From an uncultured Candidatus Saccharibacteria bacterium (GTDB lineage: Bacteria; Patescibacteriota; Minisyncoccia; Phycocordibacterales; SBAW01): a DNA stretch of 64,000 nt. The stretch covers positions 34,623 to 98,622 of the forward strand of contig CAYWFM010000001.1 of NCBI GenBank assembly GCA_964457915.1, read 5' to 3'. The notes below the pieces were generated by a model. The model searched no databases and was not told the DNA's origin. It was given only the letters and a program-made list of their open reading frames with translations. A program made the position numbers and the translations under genes. Shown here in pieces: positions 2,077 through 60,279 of this stretch. Within the stretch, counting starts at the first letter, position 1; each line of letters opens with the position of its first letter.

Positions 2077-2080
2077 ATAC

Positions 2081-6989: not shown

Positions 6990-6991
6990 TC

Positions 6992-8032: not shown

Positions 8033-8194
8033 GGCCGCCGACGCCACCAAAGTACCAACACGCAAACAAGTACCCACACTCCTGCAGCACTTACCCACAG
8101 GAGAGGGTGCGATGTTGTGGCCGGCTCTACTCGCCCCTCTAGGGAACCTGCAAAATTTGGATGTGCCTCGCTCGGAAGTGGTTGAAGTTCCATA

Positions 8195-32973: not shown

Positions 32974-33011
32974 ATATAAGAGAGTACCAAACTCGAGGTA
33001 GAATAAAAGTC

Positions 33012-34685
33012 ATGGTTACGTTTGGTGATGCCGAGCAAGAAAAACGCATAGAGTTTCTCAAGAAGCGCGAGGAGGAAGAATTGGCTCAGGTGTTGTCGCG
33101 CAAATATGGGGTTGAGTATGTCGACCTCTCTCTTATCGCCATCAACACCGACGCGCTACGCCTGTTGCCTGAAGCCCGCGCCAAAGAGACGGAGGCGGTC
33201 ATCTTTGGTATGGTCGGCAAAAAGCTCAGTCTCGCGGTGCGTGCGCCTGAGCATCCGGCAGTAAAGGCTCTGGTACAAGAATTAACCGAGCGCGGCTATC
33301 TAATCACTGTGTTCATGTGTTCACAGGAGAGCCTGCGGCGTGGCTGGGCACGGTACGCAGACCTGAGCTATGCAACTGAGAGCAAGGCGGGTGTCTTTGA
33401 AATTTCAAACGAAGAGATAGAGACACTGCTCGCTCAGGTGAAAACGCTCGGGGATATTAGCACGCTCATTCAAGAAGCGGTTGATATGAAAAAAGCCTAT
33501 CGTATCACCCGCATCCTCGAGATCATCCTCGCTGGTGGTCTTTCGATGAGCGCCTCTGATGTCCACTTTGAGCCTGAAGAGGCCGAGGTGAAACTACGCT
33601 ATCGCCTCGACGGTGTGCTGGTTGATGTGCTCTCGCTGGACCACGAGACATATCGTCTCGTCCTCTCCCGTATGAAACTCCTCTCGGGCATGAAGCTCAA
33701 CATCACCGGTGAGGCGCAAGATGGCCGCTTTAGCATCAAGGTGCGTGGTGATGAGATCGAACTGCGCACCTCGGTACTCCCCGGTAACTACGGCGAAACA
33801 GTGGTGCTGCGTATTCTTAATCCAAAATCAATCGCGGTCCCACTCCAAGAGCTTGGATTTGAACCAAAGCTCCTTGAGCGCTTACAAAAAGAGATCTTGC
33901 GTCCCAACGGGATGATTCTTACCACCGGCCCTACCGGTTCAGGTAAAACAACAACACTCTATGCCTTCTTGCGCCAAGTGAATAATCCAGGAACAAAAAT
34001 AATTACCATTGAAGACCCTATCGAGTACCACCTCCCTATCGTCCAAACTCAGGTTGAGAAAAATTACTCCTTTGCCGAAGGTCTTCGCTCTGCATTGCGC
34101 GCCGACCCCGACATCATCATGGTGGGTGAAATTAGAGACAATGAGGTCGCTGCGACAGCGATTAACGCGGCACTTACCGGTCACCTCGTGTTCTCCACGC
34201 TCCACACCAACGACGCTGCGGGTACCTTCCCTCGCCTGATTGATCTTGGGGTGAGTGAAAAGGTGCTCTCCTCGGCAATTAACGTTGCGATGGCACAGCG
34301 CTTGGTGCGCAAACTCTGTCAGCAGTGCAAGGTGAAACGCCCCCCAACTGAAGCCGAACAAAAAATCATAGACGCAACACTCGCTGAAGTGGTCGACAAA
34401 GCACTCGTGCCGCAAGAGGTGCACGAGCTCTATGACGCAAAACCAGAAGGGTGCCCTGCATGCAGCGGTCGTGGTTACAAAGGGCGCGTCGGTATTTTTG
34501 AAGCAATATTCATGGATAGTGCGATTGAGGAGATGCTGCGCAGCAAACCTTCTGAACGAGAGGTTGCGCTAGCTGCAAAACCACAAGGTATCCCTACCAT
34601 GCAGCAAGATGGCATCATAAAAGCATTGCGTGGCGTCACCTCACTTGACGAATTAACACGCGTTATCGATTTGCAAGCTCGTTAA
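33012..34685 (+). CDS. Second PilB/GspE-family secretion ATPase
   Basis: Walker A GPTGSGKTTTLY, tetracysteine CQQC...CPAC, GspE N-terminal domain. The start is set at MVTFGD (ATG 33012) to avoid overlapping the divergent tsaE start. Confidence 0.85.
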   Translation: MVTFGDAEQEKRIEFLKKREEEELAQVLSRKYGVEYVDLSLIAINTDALRLLPEARAKETEAVIFGMVGKKLSLAVRAPEHPAVKALVQELTERGYLITVFMCSQESLRRGWARYADLSYATESKAGVFEISNEEIETLLAQVKTLGDISTLIQEAVDMKKAYRITRILEIILAGGLSMSASDVHFEPEEAEVKLRYRLDGVLVDVLSLDHETYRLVLSRMKLLSGMKLNITGEAQDGRFSIKVRGDEIELRTSVLPGNYGETVVLRILNPKSIAVPLQELGFEPKLLERLQKEILRPNGMILTTGPTGSGKTTTLYAFLRQVNNPGTKIITIEDPIEYHLPIVQTQVEKNYSFAEGLRSALRADPDIIMVGEIRDNEVAATAINAALTGHLVFSTLHTNDAAGTFPRLIDLGVSEKVLSSAINVAMAQRLVRKLCQQCKVKRPPTEAEQKIIDATLAEVVDKALVPQEVHELYDAKPEGCPACSGRGYKGRVGIFEAIFMDSAIEEMLRSKPSEREVALAAKPQGIPTMQQDGIIKALRGVTSLDELTRVIDLQAR

Positions 34686-45545: not shown

Positions 45546-46766
45546 TTATTGGGAGAGTCGCACCCCCCAAAGCGCACGCTCCCCTTTCGTTATAAACAGT
45601 AAATATTTTCCGTCTGGAGAAATGTGTATAGTAGCGATATTTGACGCTACCCCACCCTTTGCGCTTCCTGGTGTCGCGGTGAGGCTTGTTATACCGCTTG
45701 CAATATCAAACTGAAAGATACTATCGGCGGCGTTGTAGAGACCTTGGTGCCACAAGTCGAGATAGTTTGCGGGTGTGGCGGTAAGAGGCGCTGCACAATA
45801 GGCAAGTGTGGGGTTCAGTGGTGACCAGGCACATTTTTCAGGAAACGGATTAAAGGGTAACTCTAAATCTTTGCCAGTAGCAACGTCGTGTGCGTAGGTC
45901 GTGCGTGGTAAGCCTGTTTGGGCGCTTTGGTATAAAATTTTTGAAAATACTTGGTTAGCAGTTGCTGAAAGTCCCTGTGTATATACCAGCTGGGCCATGG
46001 TGCCGTCGAGCGAGGACACTGCAAAAGCGACCCCGGGAGTACCATATGCCTCTTTTGATTGAAGTAGCAAGGTGTTGTTGGTAGGCCAACTCACCAGCAC
46101 CTGTAGAAGAGGAAAGGTAAACAATTTAAGCGGCACAGAGCCGTCTGCTCGTGCTATATACCCCACCGCTCCAGCGCTTGTGGGTAGTAGATACACCACA
46201 CTCTTACCGTCAGGAGAGGGAGCAAGGGTAAGTATCCCGTCTGGTAAAAAGCGAACCTTGTTTGTTGAGGTGGCAAAACCTATGAATAGTGTTTTTCTCA
46301 CTCCTGACTCCCCATACTGCACCAACACACCGGAGCCGTCTCTCAACCACTGCGCGTCCGCAATCCCCGGGATGGTTGTGTTAGAAACAATACGACTTAC
46401 CGCTTCAGAAACATCAACCGGTATATCGAGTACGTGTCCGCTATCTTGCGTCACGTAGCGCGCAAGTGTGGTGGTTGGGTTATATGTTTGGATAAAAAAA
46501 GCATCCACCACAGGCCCGTCCGCAAGCTTGAATATTTTTTGAGCGGTCTGGTTTGAAGTGTCAGTGTTGGTGGGGATTGTTTGGGTTTGGTTTTGATTAC
46601 CACCACCAGTGCTTGAGTTGCCAAAGGTTTGTGTGTTTTGGTTTGTGGTGGCTGATATGTCTGACGGGGCACCTCCCTGTTTAAAGAACATATACCACGC
46701 ACCAAAAAGGAAAAGTGCCACCACTCCCACCACCGCTATTCCCACCCCCACTTTTTTGAGAATCAT
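45546..46766 (-). CDS. Hypothetical membrane-anchored secreted protein, probably beta-propeller-like
   Basis: N-terminal TM, a Gln/Thr/Asn low-complexity linker, then repetitive beta-strand-type sequence (TolB/WD40-like, by composition only). Confidence 0.4.
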   Translation of the reverse strand: MILKKVGVGIAVVGVVALFLFGAWYMFFKQGGAPSDISATTNQNTQTFGNSSTGGGNQNQTQTIPTNTDTSNQTAQKIFKLADGPVVDAFFIQTYNPTTTLARYVTQDSGHVLDIPVDVSEAVSRIVSNTTIPGIADAQWLRDGSGVLVQYGESGVRKTLFIGFATSTNKVRFLPDGILTLAPSPDGKSVVYLLPTSAGAVGYIARADGSVPLKLFTFPLLQVLVSWPTNNTLLLQSKEAYGTPGVAFAVSSLDGTMAQLVYTQGLSATANQVFSKILYQSAQTGLPRTTYAHDVATGKDLELPFNPFPEKCAWSPLNPTLAYCAAPLTATPANYLDLWHQGLYNAADSIFQFDIASGITSLTATPGSAKGGVASNIATIHISPDGKYLLFITKGERALWGVRLSQ

Positions 46767-46769
46767 AAT

Positions 46770-47534
46770 TTATTTTAAACCACAACGAAAACCAGCAAGA
46801 CCCGCGATTGGTGGTACTGAAGTATATCCAGAACCGCGAGGACCACCAGGGTGAGTTGAAAGCCAGCTTGGAGGAAGAATATCTCCGCCCTGATCTGTAC
46901 ATGCTTTAGACTGCTCCTGTTCTATTTTTTTAGCCTCCTGAAAAGAATCAGAGCCTGCAGCAGCTCTATTTGTGGCCACGGTATCAATTACAGCTTGTTC
47001 GTCTGGTGTTAAGCAACCGGTACCGACGCCGTTTGTGCAATTAGGATTATTAATAGGTTGTCGTGTTGTTTGAGGGGATTGAAAAACAGCAACCGGATTT
47101 AATGCCCCACTAAAGGACACAAGCTGAGGATTTATGGTGAATAGAATTATCCAAGATCCTAATAGAATGGCGAGTCCCAAGAAGGATGCTTGAAGTCGCT
47201 TGCTCGCATCAAATTTTACCAGAGGTACGTCAGACACCATATAAGATATTCCTGCATATACGAACGACCCCACCGCTATGAGTGCCGCAAGAATAATAAG
47301 CAACTTAAAGACCATGCTAAGTAATTGGCCAAAATTTGCATTACCGGTTTCATATTGGGCTAAACCGGGCAATGGTTCTAGGGGGGTGTATGGTATGCCT
47401 GTATTCCCTTGCGTTTGTTGGACAACACCCTGGGTGGGGCTTATGGGAGTACCGTTTTGCGTGTACGCTTCTTGGGCATGTGCAAAACCCGTCATAGTGA
47501 GGAATATAAAAATACCAAGAATTATTTTTTTCAT
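46770..47534 (-). CDS. Candidate TrbC/VirB2-like pilin-type membrane protein
   Basis: Cleavable signal peptide (…GFAHA|QEA), then two adjacent hydrophobic helices separated by a short loop, then a Cys-containing C-terminal region. First gene downstream of the VirB4-like operon. Confidence 0.3.
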   Translation of the reverse strand: MKKIILGIFIFLTMTGFAHAQEAYTQNGTPISPTQGVVQQTQGNTGIPYTPLEPLPGLAQYETGNANFGQLLSMVFKLLIILAALIAVGSFVYAGISYMVSDVPLVKFDASKRLQASFLGLAILLGSWIILFTINPQLVSFSGALNPVAVFQSPQTTRQPINNPNCTNGVGTGCLTPDEQAVIDTVATNRAAAGSDSFQEAKKIEQEQSKACTDQGGDILPPSWLSTHPGGPRGSGYTSVPPIAGLAGFRCGLK

Positions 47535-48625
47535 AAGCCAAATAATGATGTAAGGGTTGAGCCGCCGCTTTGGCCAAAAACTATTCCTACCAAGCTTTGT
47601 GCTGCTTGGGTTAGTGTATCAATAGCGGTGTTTTGGAGCGAAATACCAACCTGTGCTGAGCCCGACCCAGATCCTGTTTGCCGTAAAGTAAGTAACCCTT
47701 TTTTCGAGTCAGGACCGCTCGTGTCATTCCCATTCAATGTCCATGAATATAGCAGTGTTCTTTTTGTAAGGCTACTATTTGTAAAATAGTATGGCTCTGC
47801 TTTGAGAGTTATTTCATTAGCGTTGAGATTGAAGTTTGTGGGCAGGGCAACGTCCAGGAGCATCCCGCGCAGGGGGTCTTGTTTATAGAGCACCACGCCA
47901 GGGCTTGTTGCTGGAATAACCACGTCCCCACTTCCCACCTTGGTTCCATTTAAATACACATCAACACGAACAGATTCATTTGTTTGGAGACCGTCACCGT
48001 TAAATATAAAAACGTTTTTCCCAAGACCTGAAGAGGCAGTATTGAGCGAGTCGTTCCTATACCACTGAAAGCTCAGTTTATTCGGAGGCACCAGAGACTT
48101 CCCCGACATAATGGTTGGGAACGCCACCACGCGCAGTGGAGAACCTGCGCTGTATAAGGATTTACCCTTGTAGAAAAGAGGAGTGGTAGTGTCAGCTTCC
48201 CACACAAGGCGCACCACCGAGGGAGCAAAAACAAAGTTTTGAACATACGTACCCTGAGTTGAAGCTATGGTTACCTGTACTGTGGTTGCACTACCTATAC
48301 CACCAGTTGTAAATGAAAAGGTGGTGAGCCCAATACCGCTCTGTGCGGTTTTACCATTTACTTGCCAAGTTATGGTCGCGTTGCCTATGAAGGGGCCAAC
48401 TCCCTGAGCCTCGATATATACCGTTTGGTTTGGCCCCGGCGTTTCGGGAGCCACAATATACTGCACGGGGTCTGGTACCGCAGAAAGTTGTGCTCGTACA
48501 GGACTTGCAACAAACGAGCAAAGCAACACAAGAACAACAAAAATAGATGCAATTTTATACTGCATACGTTGGTCTTTGCTGAATGGGTGTTTGGGCCTCA
48601 TTTGTGTGTTCGGGTAGTTGGTCAA
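47531..48625 (-). CDS. Hypothetical secreted beta-rich protein
   Basis: N-terminal signal/TM, Thr/Ser/Gly/Val-rich. 4-bp overlap with the downstream gene. Confidence 0.4.
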   Translation of the reverse strand: MTNYPNTQMRPKHPFSKDQRMQYKIASIFVVLVLLCSFVASPVRAQLSAVPDPVQYIVAPETPGPNQTVYIEAQGVGPFIGNATITWQVNGKTAQSGIGLTTFSFTTGGIGSATTVQVTIASTQGTYVQNFVFAPSVVRLVWEADTTTPLFYKGKSLYSAGSPLRVVAFPTIMSGKSLVPPNKLSFQWYRNDSLNTASSGLGKNVFIFNGDGLQTNESVRVDVYLNGTKVGSGDVVIPATSPGVVLYKQDPLRGMLLDVALPTNFNLNANEITLKAEPYYFTNSSLTKRTLLYSWTLNGNDTSGPDSKKGLLTLRQTGSGSGSAQVGISLQNTAIDTLTQAAQSLVGIVFGQSGGSTLTSLFGL

Positions 48626-49190
48626 TGGTCTCTAACTGGTTTTTCAAATTTTGACGCGATGAAATACGAAGGTTTTTTGTTCGTGTCTCCAACCCAACGG
48701 CCCTACCAACCCAGGTTTGTTTTGTCTCAGTACTATTTCGGCGCTCAATATCTTTAATACCGCGATATACAGCCCCCACGTTTGTTTTTGGTGACACCGC
48801 CAGAGCAAACGCGGTCGACGCTTTTCCCTCAAGCTGACCCTCCTCTTTCATTTTGCGCAATATGCACAAGATGGTCATCGTTGTCCATCCAGGGAGAATG
48901 TCGACCACAGGGATGATGCCAGAAAAGCCACCACCAAGAGCATACCGTAAGTAAAAGAGACCATTAAACGAAAGAAGAAGTAAAAAGCCAGCGCCAAGGG
49001 TAATGCTTAAACAAATACTTAAAGCCATGCCCAATGCAATACCAAGCGGTATGGTGACCGTGCCCACGACTTGGCCTACGAGCGGGATAGCAGCAATGCC
49101 AGCGCCTAGCGCAAAACACACCCAATAGACAAGCGCCTTAAGGCCGTCGATAAACAGCGCGACGATGATGTACGGCATGTACCTTACCAT
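48555..49190 (-). CDS. Hypothetical polytopic membrane protein (4-5 TM)
   Basis: Gly/Ala/Leu-rich helices. Start chosen at MVRYMPY. Located between the VirB4-like ATPase and secreted proteins. Confidence 0.4.
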   Translation of the reverse strand: MVRYMPYIIVALFIDGLKALVYWVCFALGAGIAAIPLVGQVVGTVTIPLGIALGMALSICLSITLGAGFLLLLSFNGLFYLRYALGGGFSGIIPVVDILPGWTTMTILCILRKMKEEGQLEGKASTAFALAVSPKTNVGAVYRGIKDIERRNSTETKQTWVGRAVGLETRTKNLRISSRQNLKNQLETIDQLPEHTNEAQTPIQQRPTYAV

Positions 49191-49194
49191 GCCT

Positions 49195-51036
49195 CTATTG
49201 TACCGCTTTTGTTTCTGATGAGGCAGAGATACTCCCACCTTCAGTAGCTCGTTGTCTGCGTAGTGCTAAAACTTGCGACGGATCCGAGGTGATAATTTGG
49301 TCCTCAGTATAGGATGCGATAACTTTGATCGCTACATGTTTGAGTCCTGCAAAGAATATCCCCTCCCCCACATCGCTCTCAAGGAGTAGATACTTCTCTT
49401 CATCCGAGAGGTTAAACGTCTTTTGCAGATTATCTATCGTAGTGGGCGACTGTTTGAGAAGTATCTGAATCGATGAGTTGGTAATCATGGGGAGCCCATA
49501 CGGTGATTTCAGGAAGTCATCCACGTCTTGGGTGATGGTGGCGAGCCCAAGGTAATACTTGCGGCCACGCTTTGCCATCCCATAGAGAAACGAAGCCGTG
49601 TCATCACTTTTCATCATCCACCACGCCTCATCTATAACTAAAAGGCGCTTTTTGAGATTTTTTCGCACCGCATTCCATATGTAGTGAGTAATAAGGTACA
49701 TAGCAACCGGCTTAAGGTCGTCCTCCATGTCGCGTACCGAAAACACAACAAATTTTTTGTTTATATCAACGTTGGTGGGACGGTTAATAAAACCAGACCA
49801 CGAACCCTTGGTGTATTTTGAGAGACGTTGCACCAAACTCTCACTCCCCTGCATGCCTGAGAGCACCATTTCGAAATCAGAGAGTAGGGGTGGCTCTGTG
49901 TCAGCAAAATTACTGTCAGGCGTAATATCTTTGAGCGCGTAGGTTTCGGTGATGGCTTTGTCTATGATTGCATCTTCTTCAGGAGACAGACCGCCGAGCA
50001 TAATACGGAAGAGACCTACAAGCGCCACGATGTTTGATCGCAAGATATCAGAAGGACTTTCATCCTCGCGGGGCACCGGCAAATCAAAGGGATTGATATG
50101 GTGCTCAGAGTTAAGGCTGATGTTGAAGTAGCGGCCACCCACCGTCTGAGCTAAAAACTCATACTCACGCTCTGGGTCTATCACAATAACTTCGGTATCG
50201 AACATGAGTGTGCGCAAGATCTCGAGCTTCGTTGCATATGATTTACCGGACCCTGATTTTGCGAAAATAACTGAGTTATAGTTTTCAAGTGAAAAACGGT
50301 CAAACAATACTAAAGAGGCATTGTGACGGTTCACTCCATACAGAATACCTTTGTCTGAGGTGAGATCGAACGAAACAAAAGGAAATATCGAAGAAAGGGG
50401 CGACGAATTGAGTTTTGAGTTAACATTAAGTTCATCAGTACCCAGAGGTAGTGTTGAACGAAACCCCTGCTCTTGTTGAAAGAGCGCTGGTTTAACATAA
50501 ATGAGTCGTGACTCAAGAACCGATTTAATTTCCGACTCAATCTTGTCCAACTCTTCTGAGGTTTTGCCATAAATAGTTATGTACACACCCACATCAAACA
50601 ATTTTTCTTGGGCTTGTTGAAGCTGGTCGCGCAGGGACTCGATATCTTGATAGGCAGTATCGAGCATAGGGTCACGCACTAATCCTTTTTCTTCCCGTGT
50701 CATAATCTGAGACTGGACCTCAGCAACTTTCTTTTGCAACTTTTTGAGTACCTCGCTGGAGTCTATAGGATGTACAAAGATAGAGATGTCGAGAACACGA
50801 TCAAGATTAATGATAGGCGCAAACCACGAGTCAGTCAGCACCCGAGGGTATGACATAACAAAAAAAGTACGCGCTATCTTATCTCCCAAATTAAGTTCTC
50901 GTGGAGTTATTTTAAGCGCTGAAGGCGCAATAACATCTTGTAGCTCTAGTATACCCTGCCGGTAAATTTGCTCAGGAAGGATGGGCGCCATAGGAGCCTG
51001 AGTTGATGTTGACTTGAATATATCGAAGAGTGCCAT
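49195..51036 (-). CDS. VirB4/TrbE/CagE-family type IV secretion ATPase (RecA-like domain portion)
   Basis: Walker A VIFAKSGSGKSYATK and Walker B LLVIDEAWWMM (the DEAW signature of VirB4-class ATPases). Confidence 0.7.
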   Translation of the reverse strand: MALFDIFKSTSTQAPMAPILPEQIYRQGILELQDVIAPSALKITPRELNLGDKIARTFFVMSYPRVLTDSWFAPIINLDRVLDISIFVHPIDSSEVLKKLQKKVAEVQSQIMTREEKGLVRDPMLDTAYQDIESLRDQLQQAQEKLFDVGVYITIYGKTSEELDKIESEIKSVLESRLIYVKPALFQQEQGFRSTLPLGTDELNVNSKLNSSPLSSIFPFVSFDLTSDKGILYGVNRHNASLVLFDRFSLENYNSVIFAKSGSGKSYATKLEILRTLMFDTEVIVIDPEREYEFLAQTVGGRYFNISLNSEHHINPFDLPVPREDESPSDILRSNIVALVGLFRIMLGGLSPEEDAIIDKAITETYALKDITPDSNFADTEPPLLSDFEMVLSGMQGSESLVQRLSKYTKGSWSGFINRPTNVDINKKFVVFSVRDMEDDLKPVAMYLITHYIWNAVRKNLKKRLLVIDEAWWMMKSDDTASFLYGMAKRGRKYYLGLATITQDVDDFLKSPYGLPMITNSSIQILLKQSPTTIDNLQKTFNLSDEEKYLLLESDVGEGIFFAGLKHVAIKVIASYTEDQIITSDPSQVLALRRQRATEGGSISASSETKAVQ

Positions 51037-51037
51037 G

Positions 51038-51694
51038 TTATTTGACTAATTGTAACGGCTTTTCGAGCTCGCCAGGGTTAAAGAGTTTGTAGAAAAGCTC
51101 TATGAGCTCTTCGGTCCCTAAATTCACCACACGTACCCCCGTGCGCACCAGCCCCTGCTCAATAACCGCAAGCCGTTCCTCAAGTTGTACACGATACTGC
51201 TCAAACTGTTCGTCTGTAAGTATGGTGCTTTGTATATTGCCACCAGGGAGGAGGTTGCTGACAGCACCCGCCACTCCCCCGCCGCGCGCTATGAGCGCAG
51301 GGTCATACGGCACAACAATAAAAAAATTTTTCGTCATAATATTTGCACGTTCCGTAAAGTCTCTAATGAAGGCAATGTATTCACGGATTTGAATTTTCAT
51401 AAGTTCATCAAGTGTCGCCGCGTAGCGGTCTTCAAGAAGTGCAATATAGGGCCGAATGTCAAGATCGCGCGATTCAACAAAAAACTGAATGGTAAATTCC
51501 AAAGAATTCAGAAAGTTTTGGAACTGACCAATAATGGCAACTTGTTCATCCTGAGACTTTAGGGCTAAGTTGATGCTCGATGCCATAACCATCGCACGCA
51601 GAGAGCCATCCTTAAGAATAATAATACCGTCTCGTACTTCTTTTATAGGTACAAAGGCTTGGGTTGCTTCAGCTTTTACTTTGGGAGGTGGCAT
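51038..51694 (-). CDS. Hypothetical protein; possibly the detached N-terminal region of VirB4
   Basis: 218 aa ending 1 nt before the ATPase ORF starts. Combined length 831 aa equals a canonical VirB4. Confidence 0.35.
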   Translation of the reverse strand: MPPPKVKAEATQAFVPIKEVRDGIIILKDGSLRAMVMASSINLALKSQDEQVAIIGQFQNFLNSLEFTIQFFVESRDLDIRPYIALLEDRYAATLDELMKIQIREYIAFIRDFTERANIMTKNFFIVVPYDPALIARGGGVAGAVSNLLPGGNIQSTILTDEQFEQYRVQLEERLAVIEQGLVRTGVRVVNLGTEELIELFYKLFNPGELEKPLQLVK

Positions 51695-51696
51695 GG

Positions 51697-52146
51697 CTAA
51701 ATAGTTGGTTGCGGCTGCTGTGGGTCTATAACACCCATCTGCGTCCTATCTTTTATATTAAGCGACCAAGAGAGATCTTTAAGCCTACTTTCACTTAAAC
51801 TGGGTACAGCTACTGTGTTTTTTTCTGCTGGGGAAGTTTTTGCTGGTGTAGCGTTTTGTGCGGTCGGCTGATGTTGTTTCCAGAGGTAGAGTTTGCTACC
51901 AAGATAGTACTTAAAGGCATATTCGAGCGTCATAACAAATGGCCGATCATTAACTTTGTAGAACGCAAGCGCGAGACCAAAAACAACAAATGGGAGCGCA
52001 AACACTGCGGCAACATAAAACGGCAACAACACAAACAAGCCAAGAGAAACTCCAGCAGAGCCAGCTAGGTATAGAAATTGCTTGAGCGTAAGAGGCCCAA
52101 AAATCTTATCTTCTATCTCGATAAATTGGGGAACCTGGTACTGCAT
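51697..52146 (-). CDS. Small two-TM membrane protein, PrgI/VirB3-like by architecture and position
   Basis: 149 aa. N-terminal FIEIEDKIFGPLTLKQFLYL followed by two TM helices. Immediately upstream of the VirB4 components, as in Gram-positive-type T4SS loci. Confidence 0.35.
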   Translation of the reverse strand: MQYQVPQFIEIEDKIFGPLTLKQFLYLAGSAGVSLGLFVLLPFYVAAVFALPFVVFGLALAFYKVNDRPFVMTLEYAFKYYLGSKLYLWKQHQPTAQNATPAKTSPAEKNTVAVPSLSESRLKDLSWSLNIKDRTQMGVIDPQQPQPTI

Positions 52147-52167
52147 CGCTCTCTAGTATACCGCACC

Positions 52168-52644
52168 CTACTCTACCGGTTCGTGGTACGGGTCGGTCGT
52201 ATACTGCTTTGTTTGGGCAGCACTCGGGCTTGATTGCACGGGCGGCATACTAGCCGCCGGAGTGATGGTGGTTTGCTGTAGTGCAGCAGAGGTTGCGGAA
52301 GGTTGAATTGGTGTTCGATTTTGTGTCAGCAAGAACTTTTTCATAGATTCTCGTATAGGCAAAAAAAGTTCTTGCGAAACATCAGTAGCTAATAGATTTG
52401 CTGTTGCTAGAGGCACCCTGATCTCTGAAACCACATTCCCAACAAATTCATCAGGATTAACAAAACCAAGCATAACCAACAACACCTCGTTCTCTAAAGT
52501 ACCCATTTGATCTATGTGGAGCAGGTATTTTTGCCCTATAGTTTGGAGTTTTTTTGAAAAATCGACCGATTGTATGGCTGCTTGTATCTCAGGAGGAAGT
52601 TCGGCCATCCGCTGCTGCAGTGTTTTTTGAAGGTTTTCGTCCAT
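52168..52644 (-). CDS. Hypothetical protein
   Basis: 158 aa, no motif. In the same operon. Confidence 0.35.
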   Translation of the reverse strand: MDENLQKTLQQRMAELPPEIQAAIQSVDFSKKLQTIGQKYLLHIDQMGTLENEVLLVMLGFVNPDEFVGNVVSEIRVPLATANLLATDVSQELFLPIRESMKKFLLTQNRTPIQPSATSAALQQTTITPAASMPPVQSSPSAAQTKQYTTDPYHEPVE

Positions 52645-52645
52645 G

Positions 52646-55489
52646 TTAGTTATGCAGATTATTTTCGGGGGTACCGTTTGGTTGTGTGTCTCCTTGATCT
52701 ATTTTCGGCTGGATATTTTGAGTAAAGGTGTCCTGTGTTGGTGGTGTGGAGTGTGTGCGTGGAATGGCCCGAATCGGTTCTGTTTGAGAGGGTGCCTGAA
52801 TAGCATTTCTTTGTGCCGTCGATAGAGTACTGTTGGGCTGTTCGTGCAGTGAGATGGTGGGTTGTACTAGCGATTCACGTAGTGAAACGGTCCCTTCGGT
52901 GGTGGTTCTTCTGAGCTGGCGCACCTCATCGGCTACATTTCGTACATCAGCTTGTAGTTCACTATTTGCCCGAATCGTCTCTCTCTGTTGTGTTTGAGCG
53001 GTCGAAGTGATGTTTGATTGAAGGTTTTCTATCGCTCCAGTTACTCTTGAGGTTTGCTCATTTATTGAAGTATTCAATGCACGAGTTTGGTCTGTAATTT
53101 CTTGAGAAGTTACCCTATCAGTACCATTTTCGCTCAAAGGTGCGCTTGTTGATGTAGAACCGATTGGCAAAGAACCTCGTTCTCGGACTCCTATTGAATC
53201 ACCTAATGCATTTGGTGTACGCAATTCTCGAAGCGCCCGCTGCTGCCTAAACCCAAGCGGATCATTGAGATTAATAATGGGTCGATATGGTCGTACTCCC
53301 CCACCCCCACCCTGCTGCTGGGGACCTGCCCCCCCGCCAGGTTGGTTTGGCCTCTGGGGTGGCTGTTGTGCAGGAGCTTGTGGTCCTTGTTGAGGAGGCT
53401 GTTGTGGGTTTTGTGGTGCAGGATTTGGGGGAGGCTGGGGAGCTGGGTTTTGGACTGCAGGAAATGCCGCAAGTGCTGCTCGAAGCCGGTCCGCGTCGCC
53501 TTCTTTTTGTCGAATACGAGCAACTGCTTCACGATCGGCAGGAGAAGAACTTTCTTCTAAACTATTCGCAAACAATTGATCATTTCCGGAACCAACTTCT
53601 TTTTTAGCCAATCCAGAAAGTCGGCCCACCTCTCTATTAAAGGCGGCTTGTCTTTGTTTCATTACCTGCTCAGTTATCGAACCAGCTTCAAACTCTGCTC
53701 GTGCTGAACCCGCCTGTTGAGAGAGTGCTAATAAATTCCCCCTGTCAGCTGTACTTAAACTCCCTATCACTTTCTTGTAAGCATCATTCAGTTGAGTTTG
53801 AGTGTACACTGTTAATTTTTTAGCCTCATCAACACGGCGTTTGACCTTAGTTTCTAACTGGCCCCCATAAGTTTTACTTGTTCCAGAGCCTATACCACCA
53901 CCGGGAAGACTCGAACCAATTTTCTTTCCTACTGTTGAGTTACGCATATCATATGTGCCCGCTCCTAATTTATTAGCACCCTTCCAGAGAGCGCGGCCCA
54001 AAACTGGATTTTCAGCAGCAACACGTCTGCCTGTATTGCTTTGGGCATACGTGTAACCCGCTCGACCAGCGGTGTTTCGCCCCGCAAGTGCGGCCGCGCC
54101 CACAACCCAACCACCCACTTTCCCCCCATACTTACTCACAGTTGAATCAAAAGCTTTGTACCCCGTTTTTGCAAACGAATCAGAGACACGCATAGCCATG
54201 TACATCAGCGCAATGATAATACCAAGGCGGATAGAGATGCCTGCGACAACCGAAGCTATAACAAAAGGTGCTCCCCTTCCAGATGCTCCTGAAGCTTCTT
54301 GTAGTGCTGCGGTTAACACCGATCCGCCACTACTGAGACCATTAGCAAAGAAGTTAATGATCCAAAAGAGAAATAAAAATACTGCAGGGTAGAAAGAGTA
54401 TTCAATAAGCGACCCCAACCAACGCTCGCGTACTTTGAAGCGGTCAGCTTTTGATCGATCATATATAGCGCCAAGCACAAACGCTAAGGGTGACGCAATA
54501 ATCGTCAACCACAATACAACTATGCGCACAATAAACTTTACTCCAACAGCGATAAAGGTGAACGCAAGCATGGCAAGGATGGCAGCCACTGCGATGTAGA
54601 CAAAAGTAAGAGTAATGAGCACGGTCCAAAAGCCAACATTTTCTTGCTTCGCAAATTGCGAGAAGGAACCACTACCTACGAGCGATTGCACCCCAATAAC
54701 ATCCATAATGCCGCGAGTAAGATCCTTTACACTACCATTTGAGGTTAAGTGGCTGGCTAGGTTGGTTACACTAGTACCCACAACCCCCGTGCTATTCTGG
54801 GCGCTTTCAGTAAGTGAAGGCGCTTCTATGGCGTTATAAAACTGCAGCGCTAACAAATTTCCGCCATCAATGACGAGGCGAGTAAAGAAAAAACTAAAAT
54901 TAATAAGTAGTGCCGCTATGATAATGCCGGCAAGCATTTTCATAGTCCCCTGTGTTTCAGCTTGTAGAATCACCGTAATTGCAAGGTACACAAGCAGAAA
55001 GATAAAGATCATGTTGGCAAGATCACGCACTGCTGCCCACGACTGGGTGAGGAAGTATTGTGAATAGGTGACGCTCTGGAGAGTGATCTGTATAGCAGTA
55101 TCAAACACAAACGCGCCTATGTAGGCGAAGATGCTCATGAGTCCTACGGTGAAAACATACACAACGTTTGAAAAACAAATGGCCCAACTAGATTTCCAGC
55201 ACGAATCAGAAATTTCACCATTGTTTCCACTGCCGCCGCTACCGCCGGACTGCCCTGCGCTAGGGGTGGTCACCGTGCCCCCTTGTCCTGGTGTCGTCGC
55301 TCCCGTTGCAGTTGGGCTAATGTTTTGGTTATTGGCATCGCTCGTTGCGTTTGCATTTAATACTGATTGCGCCTGTGCCACCGGGATTAACAACCCCGCT
55401 AGTGGCGCAAAAAATACTGTTAACAGTAGTATGCTCAGCAGTGACTTGCTGAAGAATGAGAGAGTTTTTGTTACTCGATTAGAATGCAT
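52646..55489 (-). CDS. Giant polytopic membrane protein, VirB6/TrbL-like core with Pro/Gln-rich and coiled C-terminal extension
   Basis: 947 aa. Signal peptide, ~8 TM helices in residues 100-450, then Gly-rich and PQQPPQQGPQAPAQQPP low-complexity tract and a long polar C-terminus. Confidence 0.45.
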   Translation of the reverse strand: MHSNRVTKTLSFFSKSLLSILLLTVFFAPLAGLLIPVAQAQSVLNANATSDANNQNISPTATGATTPGQGGTVTTPSAGQSGGSGGSGNNGEISDSCWKSSWAICFSNVVYVFTVGLMSIFAYIGAFVFDTAIQITLQSVTYSQYFLTQSWAAVRDLANMIFIFLLVYLAITVILQAETQGTMKMLAGIIIAALLINFSFFFTRLVIDGGNLLALQFYNAIEAPSLTESAQNSTGVVGTSVTNLASHLTSNGSVKDLTRGIMDVIGVQSLVGSGSFSQFAKQENVGFWTVLITLTFVYIAVAAILAMLAFTFIAVGVKFIVRIVVLWLTIIASPLAFVLGAIYDRSKADRFKVRERWLGSLIEYSFYPAVFLFLFWIINFFANGLSSGGSVLTAALQEASGASGRGAPFVIASVVAGISIRLGIIIALMYMAMRVSDSFAKTGYKAFDSTVSKYGGKVGGWVVGAAALAGRNTAGRAGYTYAQSNTGRRVAAENPVLGRALWKGANKLGAGTYDMRNSTVGKKIGSSLPGGGIGSGTSKTYGGQLETKVKRRVDEAKKLTVYTQTQLNDAYKKVIGSLSTADRGNLLALSQQAGSARAEFEAGSITEQVMKQRQAAFNREVGRLSGLAKKEVGSGNDQLFANSLEESSSPADREAVARIRQKEGDADRLRAALAAFPAVQNPAPQPPPNPAPQNPQQPPQQGPQAPAQQPPQRPNQPGGGAGPQQQGGGGGVRPYRPIINLNDPLGFRQQRALRELRTPNALGDSIGVRERGSLPIGSTSTSAPLSENGTDRVTSQEITDQTRALNTSINEQTSRVTGAIENLQSNITSTAQTQQRETIRANSELQADVRNVADEVRQLRRTTTEGTVSLRESLVQPTISLHEQPNSTLSTAQRNAIQAPSQTEPIRAIPRTHSTPPTQDTFTQNIQPKIDQGDTQPNGTPENNLHN

Positions 55490-57878
55490 AGCATTGTTGG
55501 AGCCCCACTGCCGTTTGTTGATTGAGCGTATTGAGTTGTGCTTGGAGACTCGCCCTGTTTTGTTGAGCAGTAGTCACATCGTTTTGAGTATATATTTGCC
55601 CGCTCCCTTTTGCTGATTGGTACTGGCTGGTCACCGTGCCTGTATCATCAGTTGATACCGCTGAGAGTGCCGCGCTTTGAAGTTGTTCAAGGGTAGAGAT
55701 GGAGTTGTTTGCGGAGAGTATATTTTCATTCAGACCTGCTACCCGCTCTTCAAGCGAGACAATTGTGCTTGAAGCTGCTCGCGCGTTAGTAAGTGCGACC
55801 GCTTGTTGGCTAAGTGTACTGGTTGAAATGAGGGCGCTTGAGGCAGATTGATTTGCCGCCGTATTCCAGCAATTATAAAGGTCGTTGAGCTGAGACTGTG
55901 AGGTCTGAATATCAGCAATACTCCCCTGCTGGATGCCAGCATAGTTTTGTGCCATGATGGTACTTTCCTGCATTTGGACAATGAGATTCTGTGATCCTGT
56001 TTGGGCAGCTAGTTGGTCTGCAGTATAAAAGTTACTTGAATATCCGCCCGCACCACTGAGTGTTGAGAGGCCGCTCTGTAGTGTGCGTGTTACGAGCTGG
56101 GTGATGAGTGCGCTAATAATTTCATCGAAACTTTTTGCCATGTCCAGTTCGGTAAAGGTGCTATTTTGAGTAGCCCCCAAACTCTGTGCAATAACGTGGC
56201 CGGGTGTGGTATCTTGCAGATCACATACTTCATACTGTGTAGCGCCGCCGTTCCCGCCCGACAGCTCTCTGACTGATCGATAGGCGTTCTCATCGGTTCG
56301 GGTGCTGCTGGTGGTGCAACGCGTCTTCTTTTTGAAGTCTAAGAATCCGTTACCCTGTAAGAGCTGTCTATTTTGTTCATTAATGTTTGCCGTTATGGCA
56401 GCGCTCACGCCAAGTGAGCCATAGGCATATGCGCCGTATGGGTTGTTGGTGGGCACAGTAGTAAACGCAAGGAATCCTTGCCATCCTCCTGCAGAGAAGT
56501 TGCCGTTCATAAAGCCATTTATGTTTCCTATGACCTGTGAGAGTCTACAGGAGTTAGCATTTCTGTTTGCATAACTTTGTGCTACAGCAATGCGTATTTG
56601 AAGTTGGAAGGGGCTGCAAAGGAACGAAAGTGCGCTTCCGCGGATATAGTTACCAGCCGCTTGGTCGGCAAGGTTTGCAAAAAAAGTATTTGGATTTGTT
56701 ACGAATGAGGGTGATCCATTAAACCCATTATTGATCCAATTCACCACGCTATTCGTTATTTGGTTGAGCACCATCTTGGCGACGTTACGGGTGAGGCAGC
56801 TCATAAAAGTGTTGGTTGAAAAATTTGAGAGATCCCCACCTTTAAGAGCGCCCAAAATACCACCAATAGCTCCCGCCGCGGCACCCTGAGCAACATAATT
56901 ACCTAAGTCGAGGCTCATGACTGAAATAGCTGCGGTGCTGCCAACAACAGGTCCTGCTGTGCCAGCAACTGCCCCCACCGCTGTTGCTGTTCCCGCTGCG
57001 GCGCCCCCCGCCGTAGAGCTTAAGTGAAACAGTTGCGCCGCACCGCACGTCGCAGCACCAACAAGCCCTGCAGCAGCAAGGGCTGTCAGTGCACCCCCTG
57101 CTGCTGAGCCTCCGCCTCCTGAGCCAAGGTTTCCTCCTATGTTTGGCAAAATACCGCCATTCCCTGACGGGTTAGAGCCGTTAATTTGGGTGATAGGAGT
57201 TGGGTTAAATAGGCTGCCGCCGCCCTGGATGAGCCAATCGACTCCCCCCGTATTACTGTCACCTAAGACTGTGCCTGTTGTGGTTGCGGGCGTATATACA
57301 TAGCCTCCGTTAGTGGTGGTGCCAAAACCTCCCCCACCTCCATATGGGTTGCTACTGGTCCCCGTTGAACCATAAGGATTATAGGTGGTTGTTCCTGAAC
57401 CATAGGTTAGTGTGCCATTTCCTCCTGTACCATAAGGCGCCAACTCAATAGTGTATAAGGTTGTGGTGCCAGTACCAACGGGTGCCGCGAGATAGTTACT
57501 CGTGACATTATCTATAGTGATGACATAGTTTCCCGCGCCCAGTATTCCAGCACCATCAAGTGGGTCAACTACATATGTACCACCACCAGTAGGAGTAATA
57601 GTATAATTCCCAACCTGCTGCCCATTTATTCCTTGAATAGCATATTTCCCTGAAGGTATGTTTTTTACCGGTTGTCCGGTACCGATAACTGGCGAGCCGA
57701 TATTCGTTGGGGTTGTTGAACCGGTACCATTGGGGTTTTTATTGGGCGAAGTGCCAAACGAACCGGTGCCTTGAGAAGGGGTGGTTTGAGCCCGATTAAG
57801 GAACCACCACCACCCAAACCCGATAAGCATAGCCACCACAAGGCCGGCGACTATGGTGATGATGATTTGTTTGTTCAT
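55479..57878 (-). CDS. Large Gly/Thr/Ser/Asn-rich surface protein with internal Ala/Gly-rich hydrophobic segment
   Basis: 799 aa. N-terminal TM anchor, repetitive GTG/TTP/YG motifs, central AAGxxAAG hydrophobic stretch. No catalytic motif seen. Confidence 0.45.
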   Translation of the reverse strand: MNKQIIITIVAGLVVAMLIGFGWWWFLNRAQTTPSQGTGSFGTSPNKNPNGTGSTTPTNIGSPVIGTGQPVKNIPSGKYAIQGINGQQVGNYTITPTGGGTYVVDPLDGAGILGAGNYVITIDNVTSNYLAAPVGTGTTTLYTIELAPYGTGGNGTLTYGSGTTTYNPYGSTGTSSNPYGGGGGFGTTTNGGYVYTPATTTGTVLGDSNTGGVDWLIQGGGSLFNPTPITQINGSNPSGNGGILPNIGGNLGSGGGGSAAGGALTALAAAGLVGAATCGAAQLFHLSSTAGGAAAGTATAVGAVAGTAGPVVGSTAAISVMSLDLGNYVAQGAAAGAIGGILGALKGGDLSNFSTNTFMSCLTRNVAKMVLNQITNSVVNWINNGFNGSPSFVTNPNTFFANLADQAAGNYIRGSALSFLCSPFQLQIRIAVAQSYANRNANSCRLSQVIGNINGFMNGNFSAGGWQGFLAFTTVPTNNPYGAYAYGSLGVSAAITANINEQNRQLLQGNGFLDFKKKTRCTTSSTRTDENAYRSVRELSGGNGGATQYEVCDLQDTTPGHVIAQSLGATQNSTFTELDMAKSFDEIISALITQLVTRTLQSGLSTLSGAGGYSSNFYTADQLAAQTGSQNLIVQMQESTIMAQNYAGIQQGSIADIQTSQSQLNDLYNCWNTAANQSASSALISTSTLSQQAVALTNARAASSTIVSLEERVAGLNENILSANNSISTLEQLQSAALSAVSTDDTGTVTSQYQSAKGSGQIYTQNDVTTAQQNRASLQAQLNTLNQQTAVGLQQCYAF

Positions 57879-57879
57879 G

Positions 57880-58779
57880 CTACTGCGCGGACAAAAGCAC
57901 AGCCCATGCTGCGCCTGGCTCGTCCTTCTTAAAAAGTATACCGTTTTTATTGAATGCTTGGGCTATGTTTATGAACACTCTGAAGGTTTCTTGTGTGAGC
58001 GATTGGTACAGCTGGAGTCCGGTAGAGCCACGAACGGTGTCGGTAAGAATGTCGTCCATAAGATCATAAGTGTTGGCGATCTTTTGAAAATTATTTACCA
58101 ACTGGAGATGAAAGGGGGCTAGTGTGCGAGGGACGCGCACCGCCACGAGTTGGGTTGCTATACCCTGGTAGCGGCTTTGTATGGCAGATAGGTTTTTTAA
58201 GGGGCTCTGGTCTTGAGATGCGGAGGCATTATCAAGAGCTACCATGGTTGCTGCGTACTCGTTTTCCTTGTTGCGCATCAGTAATGTTGCTAAGGCGTTA
58301 CCATACTCACGTTGTGAGGAGGCAGAATCCTCGACGATATGGAGATCTGCCTGAGAAAACGACCCCTGCACCTGCTCTTTCTTAATTTGTGCCGTTGCCT
58401 GAGCGACAATTTGGTCTTGGGTGGGAATGTCGTTGCCTAGTCCTTGTGATTTTGCTGCCCCAAGGTTGACAAACAGGGTTCGCGCCACGGTGTCGGTGAG
58501 TGTACTACTCTGTGCTGCAGCAAGCTGCTTTGATAAGGTTTCGCTATCGGGGGGTTGCGGAGCTGTTATTCCTGACTGGTCTTGGATGGTGGCAAGACTC
58601 GTTTGCCAATCTCCCTGCCCGGCCGAGGCTGTAGGATTGTGGGGTATTGTCGCGGAATTAAGAAAGACTTGTTTTGGTGCGGTGAGAGTTTGGGCGCCAT
58701 AAACGAGCCCACAAGCGAGAAATATTGATGAAAATAGCAATATAAATTGGCCGCTGGGTAGGTAGGGGCGAAGACTCAT
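57880..58779 (-). CDS. Hypothetical secreted protein (first gene of the T4SS-like operon)
   Basis: 299 aa, N-terminal TM/signal, Gln/Ala-rich. Confidence 0.4.
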   Translation of the reverse strand: MSLRPYLPSGQFILLFSSIFLACGLVYGAQTLTAPKQVFLNSATIPHNPTASAGQGDWQTSLATIQDQSGITAPQPPDSETLSKQLAAAQSSTLTDTVARTLFVNLGAAKSQGLGNDIPTQDQIVAQATAQIKKEQVQGSFSQADLHIVEDSASSQREYGNALATLLMRNKENEYAATMVALDNASASQDQSPLKNLSAIQSRYQGIATQLVAVRVPRTLAPFHLQLVNNFQKIANTYDLMDDILTDTVRGSTGLQLYQSLTQETFRVFINIAQAFNKNGILFKKDEPGAAWAVLLSAQ

Positions 58780-58818
58780 ACACTACAGTATACCGTTTTT
58801 TACCGGTATACTACGAAT

Positions 58819-60279
58819 ATGATAGCCCTGATACAGATGTTGTGTGCGTATGTATTAGTGATTTGCCAGGTTCTGGCGGCTCCACTCGTTTTCTTGGGCC
58901 ACTCTGCACAATTAGCTGCAGTGTCGTACGCACAAAATACCCAAACAACCGCACTTGAAGGAGGTTCCTACAACCTGTACTCCCCTTCGGAAGATCTCAC
59001 GCTAATGAGTGGTGTGACAGACCCTTCTGGAAATCCGCATTTATACAAACGAAATCTGGAAAATTTTAGAGAATTCAGCCCTATAGTATTAGGAAATACC
59101 GAAACGCACTATAGCGACCCCTCTATAGTCACGCTTCTCGATCAATCTTCTACAAAATATCTTTATTTTACAAGACTTTCTGCTCAGGATGCTGCTTCAA
59201 GCACGCTTGCGAGGCTCAATAATCATATTGGGGTTGCTATTAGTACCGATGGAGGGGTTTCCTGGGAGGATAAAGGTACACTTATTGGTCAGGCAAATGG
59301 AATAGACGCTCGAGGTGCGTGGTCACCAGGTGCAGTACTTACAAAAGATGCTCAACTGTGGGTATATTTCAGTACTAACTATCCGGGAGATATCACGGTG
59401 TATCGTGCGCTTTTGGACCAAAGCGGCACTAATGTGATTGCTACTGAGCGCACATATCTTATCGATGAAAAGACACCCAAAGCGCTTACCGGATTTGATG
59501 TTTCTGTGTCACTCGCTGGTGATGGGTATCAAATGGTTATTAACAAAGATTTTTCTTCCATATACCGGTATATCAGTAACGATGGGATACATTGGTATAC
59601 AGACACCCAAACCAATAATCCTGTTGTCGCCGCACAAAAGGGTTCGGTGGTACGCGGAGCGATACAAAAAAACAACACCATATACTTCTCGGGCGGCTCT
59701 GTTGAAAAGGGCATATTTAACACGCTTAATAGTGTCGATATGGCTACCTTGTCTACACAGGCAAGTTTTTCGTATGTTGATGCGCAGCAGCAGCTTGGAT
59801 TTCAAACAGGACAACCAAGCGGTTCAAGTTCTAATGCTGGGGGCTCCGGTGGCATGGCCGTCATGGTTGGGGTTATGGGAATTGCAGCCATTGCGGGTCT
59901 AACGTACCTAATAACAGGAGCGACTGCGGCTGGAACCACAGCGGCGACCGTGGGTACGGCGGCGGTTAGTTCAAATTTAACAGGTTTTTCTTTTGGTGGG
60001 CGAATAGGCGTGGTGGTTCCTTGTGTTAGTGCCCTCGGACCATCTCTTTGGGTACAGCTTGCGGTGCCTGCAAGTTTGCTCTTGCCACCCTATTCATACA
60101 TATGGACTCCTGCTACCATGGTTGGGATCCCACCAAAGCCACCCTCTATCCCCCCATCGCACCCAGGACAGGAAATAAAAGGACGGTTTGATATACCCTA
60201 TGTGTGTTTTACCTACAGCGTCCCACCTATACCGCTGTACGGGTTACGTATGCAAACAGAACAGGTGAGCGCTATATAG
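58819..60279 (+). CDS. Asp-box (BNR) repeat, sialidase/glycoside-hydrolase-like surface protein with C-terminal membrane anchor
   Basis: STDGGVSWE and SNDGIHWY match the SxDxGxTW Asp-box. N-terminal signal peptide, C-terminal Gly-rich linker plus TM helix. Confidence 0.4.
   Translation: MIALIQMLCAYVLVICQVLAAPLVFLGHSAQLAAVSYAQNTQTTALEGGSYNLYSPSEDLTLMSGVTDPSGNPHLYKRNLENFREFSPIVLGNTETHYSDPSIVTLLDQSSTKYLYFTRLSAQDAASSTLARLNNHIGVAISTDGGVSWEDKGTLIGQANGIDARGAWSPGAVLTKDAQLWVYFSTNYPGDITVYRALLDQSGTNVIATERTYLIDEKTPKALTGFDVSVSLAGDGYQMVINKDFSSIYRYISNDGIHWYTDTQTNNPVVAAQKGSVVRGAIQKNNTIYFSGGSVEKGIFNTLNSVDMATLSTQASFSYVDAQQQLGFQTGQPSGSSSNAGGSGGMAVMVGVMGIAAIAGLTYLITGATAAGTTAATVGTAAVSSNLTGFSFGGRIGVVVPCVSALGPSLWVQLAVPASLLLPPYSYIWTPATMVGIPPKPPSIPPSHPGQEIKGRFDIPYVCFTYSVPPIPLYGLRMQTEQVSAI

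Follow-up and report, generated by a model that had tools for sequence, protein, structure and literature searches.

A chromosomal type IV secretion gene block, probably of the Patescibacteria clade, beside the origin-region genes of a probable Paceibacteria genome

The 64,000-nucleotide (nt) window analysed here (contig CAYWFM010000001.1 of assembly GCA_964457915.1, positions 34,623–98,622; all coordinates below count from the first base of the window) holds a block of genes for a type IV secretion system (T4SS) centred on a VirB4 ATPase. A scan of open reading frames (ORFs) placed 11 tightly packed, co-oriented genes on the minus strand between 45546 and 58779 (Table 1), flanked by ksgA and uvrD/pcrA on one side and by jag, yidC, rnpA, dnaA and dnaN on the other. 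The original prediction for this DNA had listed ten genes over 46770–58779, and all ten ORFs were present on the minus strand where it had put them (254, 364, 227, 613, 218, 149, 158, 947, 799 and 299 amino acids (aa), from low to high coordinates). The block is larger than that, however, as a further gene (45546–46766, 406 aa) lies 3 bp past the pilin gene; because this eleventh gene belongs to the block, the block ends 5 bp from jag and not 1.2 kb from the origin-region genes as had been proposed. From the 299-aa gene to the 406-aa gene, the junctions between the longest ORFs measure +1, −11, +1, +21, +2, +1, −44, −71, −4 and +3 nt, so that the described pattern of overlaps or 0–3 bp spacers holds at most junctions, with one spacer of 21 nt departing from it. 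The overlaps of 44 and 71 nt arise because the longest ORFs were taken, and in-frame ATG starts at 49190 and 48565 turn them into +4 and −11. Relatives were collected by scanning one genome per species, which gave 563 VirB4 relatives; the locus counts below use the best 80 of these 563 (L001–L080).

Assignment to the T4SS superfamily is carried first by the 613-aa ATPase, which matched the NCBIfam model NF045971 (VirB4-like conjugal transfer ATPase, CD1110 family) with 398.7 bits against a curated cut-off of 325, over model positions 185–733 of 752 (~540 residues). It also matched PF19044 (E 2e-26) and was recovered by phmmer with PrgJ of plasmid pCF10 (E 2.3e-46). Among the models that recognised it, the CD1110-type family (398.7 bits) ranked above the VirB4 of Mycoplasma integrative and conjugative elements (ICEs; 277.9), TraC-F (191.1) and VirB4/CagE (135.7), with the DUF87/HerA central domain at 31.8 bits. 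The Walker B motif reads VIDEAWW, in line with the DEAW noted previously, but Walker A reads AKSGSGKS and not GKSGSGKS. VirB4 had been treated as a single gene, and a split into this ATPase and a separate 218-aa, TrsD-like N-terminal domain had been overlooked. The smaller protein matched NF045975 (positions 100–233, E 2e-8), NF045971 (positions 3–104, E 5.7e-4) and the TrsD model NF041427 (E 6.4e-8), all with scores under the curated NCBIfam cut-offs, and an identical protein carries a precomputed PF26593 TraC-like match. A frameshifted VirB4 pseudogene was considered and rejected because a separate ORF of 209–227 aa is kept in 77 of the 80 loci.

The 149-aa protein was identified as PrgI/VirB3-like by PF12666 (42.1 bits against a gathering score of 27, E 1.3e-10), with orthologues in 76 of the 80 loci at a median identity of 49%. 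Its PrgI identity had been anticipated, but not its position, as the 218-aa gene intervenes and places it two genes upstream of the ATPase instead of next to it. The VirB6-like character suggested earlier for the 947-aa protein is likewise borne out, with ~8 hydrophobic segments, a Pro/Gln-rich stretch NPAPQPPPNPAPQNPQQPPQQGPQAPAQQPPQRPNQ and a long C-terminal extension (cytoplasmic or extracellular) containing coiled-coil and Pro/Gln-rich segments. The protein itself had no Pfam match; 6 of 55 orthologues matched PF04610, and its best structural match was TrwI, the VirB6-fold protein of the R388 Trw system. Recognition of the pilin depends on its orthologues in a similar way: 37 of 39 matched PF18895 T4SS_pilin (best E 2.4e-10) and five matched TrbC, supporting the earlier guess of a VirB2/TrbC-type pilin from a signal peptide and two hydrophobic helices. 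In the window protein, a Sec-exported pilin, these features comprise a signal peptide, a Y-x-P-L-x-P-L-P-G motif, hydrophobic helices at residues 71–89 and 116–134, and a variable, Cys-containing C-terminal extension of ~120 aa. Signal peptide, YxPLxPLPG motif and two-helix core are conserved across the orthologue alignment and the tail is variable. A hidden Markov model (HMM) of the pilin core found the window gene at E 2e-33 as exactly one copy in the window, with one copy in 66 loci and two in three loci. Among the pilin orthologues, the length of the C-terminal extension ranges from a handful to several hundred residues (ORFs of 151–580 aa), often with an end near a Cys; the extension of one orthologue matches a CHAP hydrolase domain.

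Table 1. Genes of the block and the inverted repeat upstream of it, from the first gene to the last (window coordinates)
Feature	Position	Strand	Basis or remark
Inverted repeat AGTATACCG-N8-CGGTATACT, perfect, 9-nt arms	58787..58812	.	In the 39-bp spacer between the 299-aa gene and the divergent gene 58819-60279
First gene, 299 aa; membrane helix at residues 11-29, external domain of ~270 aa	57880..58779	-	
Membrane-anchored surface protein, 799 aa	55479..57878	-	
VirB6-like polytopic membrane protein ('extended VirB6'), 947 aa	52646..55489	-	PF04610 matches of orthologues; structural match to TrwI
Cytoplasmic protein, 158 aa, no membrane helix	52168..52644	-	
PrgI/VirB3-like protein, 149 aa; hydrophobic hairpin at residues 24-55	51697..52146	-	PF12666
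TrsD-like protein, detached VirB4 N-terminal domain, 218 aa	51038..51694	-	Matches to N-terminal parts of VirB4 models
VirB4 ATPase, central and C-terminal parts, 613 aa	49195..51036	-	NF045971, PF19044, phmmer with PrgJ
Small membrane protein, four hydrophobic segments	48555..49190	-	Longest ORF to 49238 (227 aa); probable ATG at 49190
Signal-anchored protein, three tandem Ig-like repeats of ~100 aa each	47531..48565	-	Longest ORF to 48625 (364 aa)
VirB2-like T4SS pilin, 254 aa	46770..47534	-	Orthologues match PF18895
Last gene, 406 aa; N-terminal membrane helix and TolB-like beta-propeller	45546..46766	-	

Equally informative is what the scans did not return. No VirD4/TcpA coupling protein, relaxase, VirB11 or integrase was found by Pfam and NCBIfam scans of every ORF of at least 300 aa in the 64-kb window, and phmmer with PcfC and PcfG of pCF10 against all six-frame ORFs of the window gave nothing (for PcfC, at E ≤ 1), as had already been noted for the coupling protein, relaxase and VirB11. 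A repeat search found no boundary or flanking repeats, only short imperfect ones, which together with the family scans agrees with the original statement that the block has neither an integrase nor repeat-flanked boundaries. The GC content of the block matches its surroundings and shows no compositional anomaly.

The block occupies the same chromosomal site in up to 80 species-representative genomes, where the order uvrD-ksgA-[299-799-VirB6-158-PrgI-TrsD-VirB4-(227)-364-pilin-406]-jag-yidC-dnaA-dnaN is nearly exceptionless. VirB4 identity between the window and the best 80 of the 563 relatives is 76–96%, and all 563 are metagenome-assembled genomes from the candidate phyla radiation (CPR). Across the best 80 loci, VirB4 has a median identity of 79%, compared with 54% for DnaA, 39% for DnaN, 51% for UvrD, 48% for KsgA and 35% for YidC, and it exceeds DnaA in 55 of the 55 loci holding both, a gap that is inflated by the selection of the loci for their VirB4 similarity. 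The identity values of VirB4 and DnaA are correlated (r = 0.94). The block is vertically inherited and strongly constrained, and because up to 80 species-representative genomes share its gene order we regard it as a core locus rather than a mobile element.

These relatives also bear on the identity of the organism. Those that were named independently are Kaiser-, Nomura-, Adler-, Campbell-, Taylor-, Zambryski- and Vogelbacteria or 'Paceibacterota/Parcubacteria', all of the Parcubacteria group. Relatives labelled 'uncultured Candidatus Saccharibacteria' all come from one Third Party Annotation (TPA) project, on which ground a Saccharibacteria origin was rejected; these TPA entries interleave, at equal VirB4 identity, with Kaiser-, Taylor-, Nomura- and Zambryskibacteria. 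Because all independently named relatives are Parcubacteria/Paceibacteria and the locus has a single pilin gene instead of the pilin array of Saccharimonadia, its host is probably a member of the Paceibacteria, and the Saccharibacteria context implied by the original prediction is probably wrong.

Six lineage-specific proteins of the block (299, 799, 158, 227, 344 and 406 aa), envelope or cytoplasmic, belong to no curated family, and four of them are membrane-anchored with large external domains, namely the bitopic 299-aa protein, the 799-aa protein, the protein with three immunoglobulin (Ig)-like repeats and the beta-propeller protein. The 299-aa protein has orthologues at the same position in 24 of the 80 loci; it gave no Pfam, NCBIfam or PDB-profile match, and hhalign comparisons with PrgL, PrgD and Tn916 Orf13 were likewise negative. 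By position it is a candidate for the VirB8-position protein. In the 799-aa protein an N-terminal helix is followed by a Gly/Thr-rich low-complexity region, a conserved Cys-rich domain (~residues 360–620) and a C-terminal bundle of three long helices. The three helices were modelled with a predicted local distance difference test (pLDDT) score >90, and a fold search matched generic bundles only. Orthologues of this protein exchange modules on the N-terminal side, including lectin (F5/8-type-C), Ig-like and peptidoglycan-binding modules. The family numbers 4,998 representatives at 50% clustering and has no Pfam model; a Pfam scan of ten of its long members found Big_2 in one and nothing in the other nine.

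In the 158-aa protein a Pro-rich linker joins a conserved N-domain to a conserved DPY(R/H)E motif at the C-terminus, which is nearly invariant in the family as DPYRE(P); the window copy ends in DPYHEPVE. In 61 of the 80 loci the interval from the VirB6-like gene to prgI contains a single ORF that ends in DP[YF]RE, and the family gave no Pfam match among 34 orthologues, its database homologues all being 'hypothetical'. The small membrane protein has no Pfam or NCBIfam family and homologues in 7 of the 80 loci, in the closest relatives only. The triple-Ig protein probably starts at 48565, which makes it 344 aa long and equal in length to the median of 75 orthologues. Self-alignment of its profile recovered the repeats at an offset of ~100 aa (probability 97%, E 1e-11 to 1e-12), phage T4 Hoc gave a weak profile match through its Ig-like domains (E 8e-4), and orthologues occur in 77 of the 80 loci. 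The 406-aa gene is present at the same position in 65 loci; its product gave a weak TolB propeller match in a PDB profile search (E 0.003) and a faint PD40 match. PDB profile searches with the 799-, 947- and 299-aa families returned nothing meaningful, and one single orthologue matched DUF4141. In hhalign comparisons of the orthologue profiles with PrgD/E/F/G/H/K/L/M, PcfA, PcfB, Orf13 and Orf14 no pair exceeded 16% probability, a weak test because the pCF10 and Tn916 targets are single sequences.

The closest published counterpart is the T4SS of the Patescibacteria clade. VirB4 has been reported in 2,417 of 3,035 Patescibacteria assemblies, most of it in a monophyletic clade nested in the mating-pair formation (MPF) class MPF-FATA (Quinonero-Coronel et al. 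2025, Microb Genom, PMC12102498), and the system is catalogued there in 2,407 Patescibacteria assemblies. This survey lists TrsD, PrgI/VirB3, VirB6 and VirB2-like pilins as virB4 neighbours, describes relaxases as rare and type IV coupling proteins (T4CPs) as mostly distant, and places the T4SS of Paceibacteria and Microgenomatia near dnaA, dnaN, ksgA and rnpA. The window locus is alike in all of these: VirB4 with a separate TrsD, PrgI/VirB3, VirB6 and a VirB2-like pilin close by, a probable MPF-FATA affinity, relaxase and T4CP not nearby, and the same four neighbours. We see nothing different in kind. The DPYRE-type 158-aa protein, the 799-aa family, the triple-Ig protein and the TolB-like propeller are not named in the survey text that we consulted and may be among its unnamed 'CPR profiles'; it also associates VirB1 homologues with virB4 in Paceibacteria, whereas none was recognised in the window block.

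A homologous cluster is essential for the epibiotic growth of Southlakia epibionticum (Wang et al. 2023, Cell, PMC10633639), a finding with which the original suggestion of a host-interaction machinery agrees. In strain ML1 this cluster (SEML1_0006-0019; PMC10633639 supplement) shares with the window a 612-aa VirB4, a hypothetical protein at the TrsD position, PrgI, a VirB6 of >1,000 aa and PF18895 pilins; it is separated from the genome start by a few genes and has no recognisable relaxase or coupling protein. In contrast, only S. epibionticum carries an array of six divergent pilin genes, encoded on the opposite strand, together with an NTF2-like (VirB8-fold) protein that is not essential, and a peptidase and lysozyme downstream of virB4. 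The window, from an organism of a different class, encodes a single pilin, whose C-terminal extension is long, and neither a hydrolase nor an NTF2-like protein was recognised in it. The same difference separates it from the Saccharimonadia-type locus in general, with its 2–11 divergent pilin genes and peptidase and lysozyme downstream of virB4. Among the Gram-positive MPF-FATA systems, pCF10 Prg/Pcf and pGO1/pSK41 Trs resemble the block in the PrgJ–VirB4 match, the PrgI family and a monoderm architecture without VirB7, VirB9 or VirB10, and the pGO1 subclass shares the division into TrsD and a TrsE-type VirB4. The Gram-positive systems differ in having a T4CP (PcfC), a relaxase (PcfG), the PrgK hydrolase, PrgL (VirB8 fold) and LPXTG adhesins and no pilin; none of these proteins was detected in the window, where a VirB2-like pilin is present. 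With the MPF-T systems R388 Trw and Agrobacterium VirB the block has in common the VirB6 fold (TrwI) and a VirB2/TrbC-type pilin, and the placement of a large external protein of helical build immediately upstream of virB6 would recall the virB5–virB6 order, but it is without the outer-membrane core complex, VirB11 and T4CP of those systems. The Patescibacteria-clade T4SS derives from monoderm (MPF-FATA, Gram-positive-like) conjugation machinery, and a 2025 review counts the Patescibacteria T4SSs as newcomers to the superfamily (PMC12857230).

We therefore read the locus as a chromosomal, non-conjugative T4SS of the Patescibacteria clade in its Paceibacteria/Parcubacteria gene arrangement, acting as a VirB4-driven assembly machine for a pilus or conduit in host contact, and put the probability of this reading at roughly three in four. 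The functional part, that the core activity is pilus or conduit assembly for host contact, we hold at about even odds. In S. epibionticum the T4CP homologue, encoded at a distance, was not found essential, according to the 2025 survey (PMC12102498). Because no T4CP or relaxase is present in the locus, and because in the one relative tested the T4CP is dispensable and the system essential, the core activity would be independent of a coupling protein. This favours the assembly of a pilus or conduit for contact with the host over the transfer of a plasmid or ICE. In Agrobacterium, T-pili can form without VirD4. Following established T4SS biology, VirB3 and VirB6 would form a membrane platform on which the split VirB4, docked as a hexamer, would pull pilin from the membrane and polymerise it into a pilus or short conduit across the wall. 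The anchored external proteins could scaffold or tip this structure and bind the surface of the host cell; a surface or host-binding role is favoured by their signal or anchor helices, by the Ig-like repeats and the TolB-like propeller, and by the modules found in orthologues of the 799-aa protein. Any transport, whether of protein outwards or of host material inwards, would be secondary.

Several observations weigh against this interpretation. Pfam, NCBIfam, PDB-profile and hhalign comparisons recognised no VirB8-like component in the block, nor was a VirB1-like hydrolase recognised, the 11 proteins holding no SLT, CHAP, NlpC/P60 or M23 domain and hhalign against PrgK and Tn916 Orf14 being negative. 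The window pilin scores sub-threshold in its own right (TrbC 17.2, T4SS_pilin 12.5 bits), and a C-terminal extension of ~120 aa, as it has, is unusual in a polymerising VirB2. The selection of loci by VirB4 similarity, given above with the identity values, also counts here. The negative searches cover 64 kb of the genome, and a coupling protein or relaxase may be encoded elsewhere; T4CP homologues are common in Patescibacteria genomes, usually far from virB4, according to the survey (PMC12102498). Finally, a 2024 perspective called the role of the Patescibacteria T4SS 'completely unknown' (PMC11665869), and no pilus, conduit or substrate is known from this organism or any Paceibacterium.

The strongest competitor, a possible though unlikely one, is a T4SS that injects effector proteins into the bacterial host so as to subvert it or make it permeable. 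Effector delivery is the speculation favoured in the literature (PMC10633639; PMC11665869), and effector T4SSs without a T4CP exist, among them Brucella VirB and Bordetella Ptl (PMC12857230; PMC12102498). A channel-type VirB6, VirB3 and VirB4 are all present here, but the window has no coupling protein, no candidate effector or chaperone was recognised in it, and no substrate has been identified in this analysis or in the literature. To our knowledge, the T4CP-independent exporters draw their substrates from the periplasm, a compartment that monoderms are without, and we count this against effector delivery.

Doubtful on present evidence is an uptake machine like Helicobacter ComB or Sulfolobales Ced, importing host DNA, nucleotides or other macromolecules that a reduced genome cannot make. 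Both known systems function without a relaxase, ComB also without a T4CP, and like the block they are VirB4-centred and chromosomal, but their sequence affinity to it is low and their partner genes are not present in the window. The 2024 perspective, which mentions effector delivery or nucleotide uptake, raised uptake because comEC competence is dispensable and the T4SS essential (PMC11665869). The ATPase weakly matches CedB (NCBIfam, 38.5 bits, E 5e-10), but this score is far under the cut-off of 700 and, because the VirB4/CD1110 model scores 398.7 bits, we attribute it to the shared P-loop only. Pfam and NCBIfam recognised no ComEC-like or DNA-binding partner in the block, and uptake has no experimental support in any Patescibacterium.

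More speculative again, and to our minds improbable, is a 'feeding organelle', in which a vertically inherited, origin-proximal, coupling-protein-independent T4SS of Paceibacteria would take up host material through its pilus or conduit and its lineage-specific external subunits would confer host specificity. Here the 799-aa protein would serve as an adhesin at the tip or stalk, comparable to VirB5 and fitted with exchangeable modules (lectin, Ig or peptidoglycan-binding), and the DPYRE protein as a docking adaptor for the split VirB4. No such roles are on record so far.

A conjugative element, the remnant of an ICE or plasmid integrated near the origin, is close to refuted. VirB4, PrgI and TrsD are nearest to families of Gram-positive conjugative elements, and a minority of Patescibacteria carry relaxases (PMC12102498), but the scans of the 64-kb window found no relaxase, T4CP, integrase or flanking repeats, the block shows no GC contrast with its surroundings, its chromosomal position is shared by 80 species-level genomes and VirB4 divergence follows DnaA divergence. 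The original view that this is not a conjugative element is thus supported within the window and by the conserved origin-side synteny. The remaining alternative, a HerA/FtsK-type ATPase beside unrelated membrane proteins, named in the original prediction as the grouping that would refute the T4SS reading, is itself refuted, as the 31.8-bit match to the DUF87/HerA central domain stands against an above-cut-off VirB4 equivalog match and PrgI, VirB6-fold, pilin-family and TrsD-domain proteins that are all adjacent.

A system with a pilin, a missing relaxase and a position beside dnaA and ksgA has already been published, in 2023 and 2025 (PMC10633639; PMC12102498). Most CPR bacteria carry a machine of this kind beside their origin of replication. 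The locus is thus no new kind of system but a clean Paceibacteria example with a complete parts list. The T4SS of the CPR is among the few machines shown to be essential for epibiotic life, and the four or five conserved lineage-specific subunits, the 799-aa family and the DPYRE protein among them, are likely seats of host recognition and mechanism.

Upstream of the first gene, the inverted repeat listed in Table 1 occurs once in the window against an expectation of zero (100 shuffles). Each arm contains a TATACT hexamer that lies 7–13 nt away from a start codon, and the closest relative (L001) has partly retained the arms; the repeat may be a promoter or operator element shared by the two divergent genes. 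A general scan for promoters and terminators gave counts at shuffle background, and six tRNAs were the sole matches in an Rfam scan. The divergent gene (58819–60279, plus strand), between the T4SS operon and ksgA, encodes a 486-aa membrane protein with an Asp-box-like STDGGVSWEDKG motif for which no family was found; it is common to the window and this closest relative only.

Elsewhere in the window, 5286–11957 and 32958–34685 hold a type IV pilus set apart from the T4SS, with two PilB-type ATPases carrying MshEN, PilC/GspF and large pseudopilin-like proteins. The two T2SSE ATPases are ascribed to type IV pili because of their MshEN domains and their PilC and pseudopilin neighbours, and the set is probably relevant to host attachment. 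Confusion of the T4SS block with a type IV pilus or type II secretion system was rejected, as the PilB/GspE, PilC and prepilin genes lie in these two regions, outside the block. Genomes of the CPR are usually described as without a respiratory chain; at 139–2920 (minus strand) the window encodes a terminal oxidase, cytochrome o ubiquinol oxidase subunit I (CyoB model, 970 bits, cut-off 1020) and subunit II (CyoA). Beside a response regulator, and unrelated to the T4SS, are a DUF2779 protein (19065–20561, minus strand) and a pair formed by a ThiF-family protein and a 478-aa protein of no assigned family (14686–17157).

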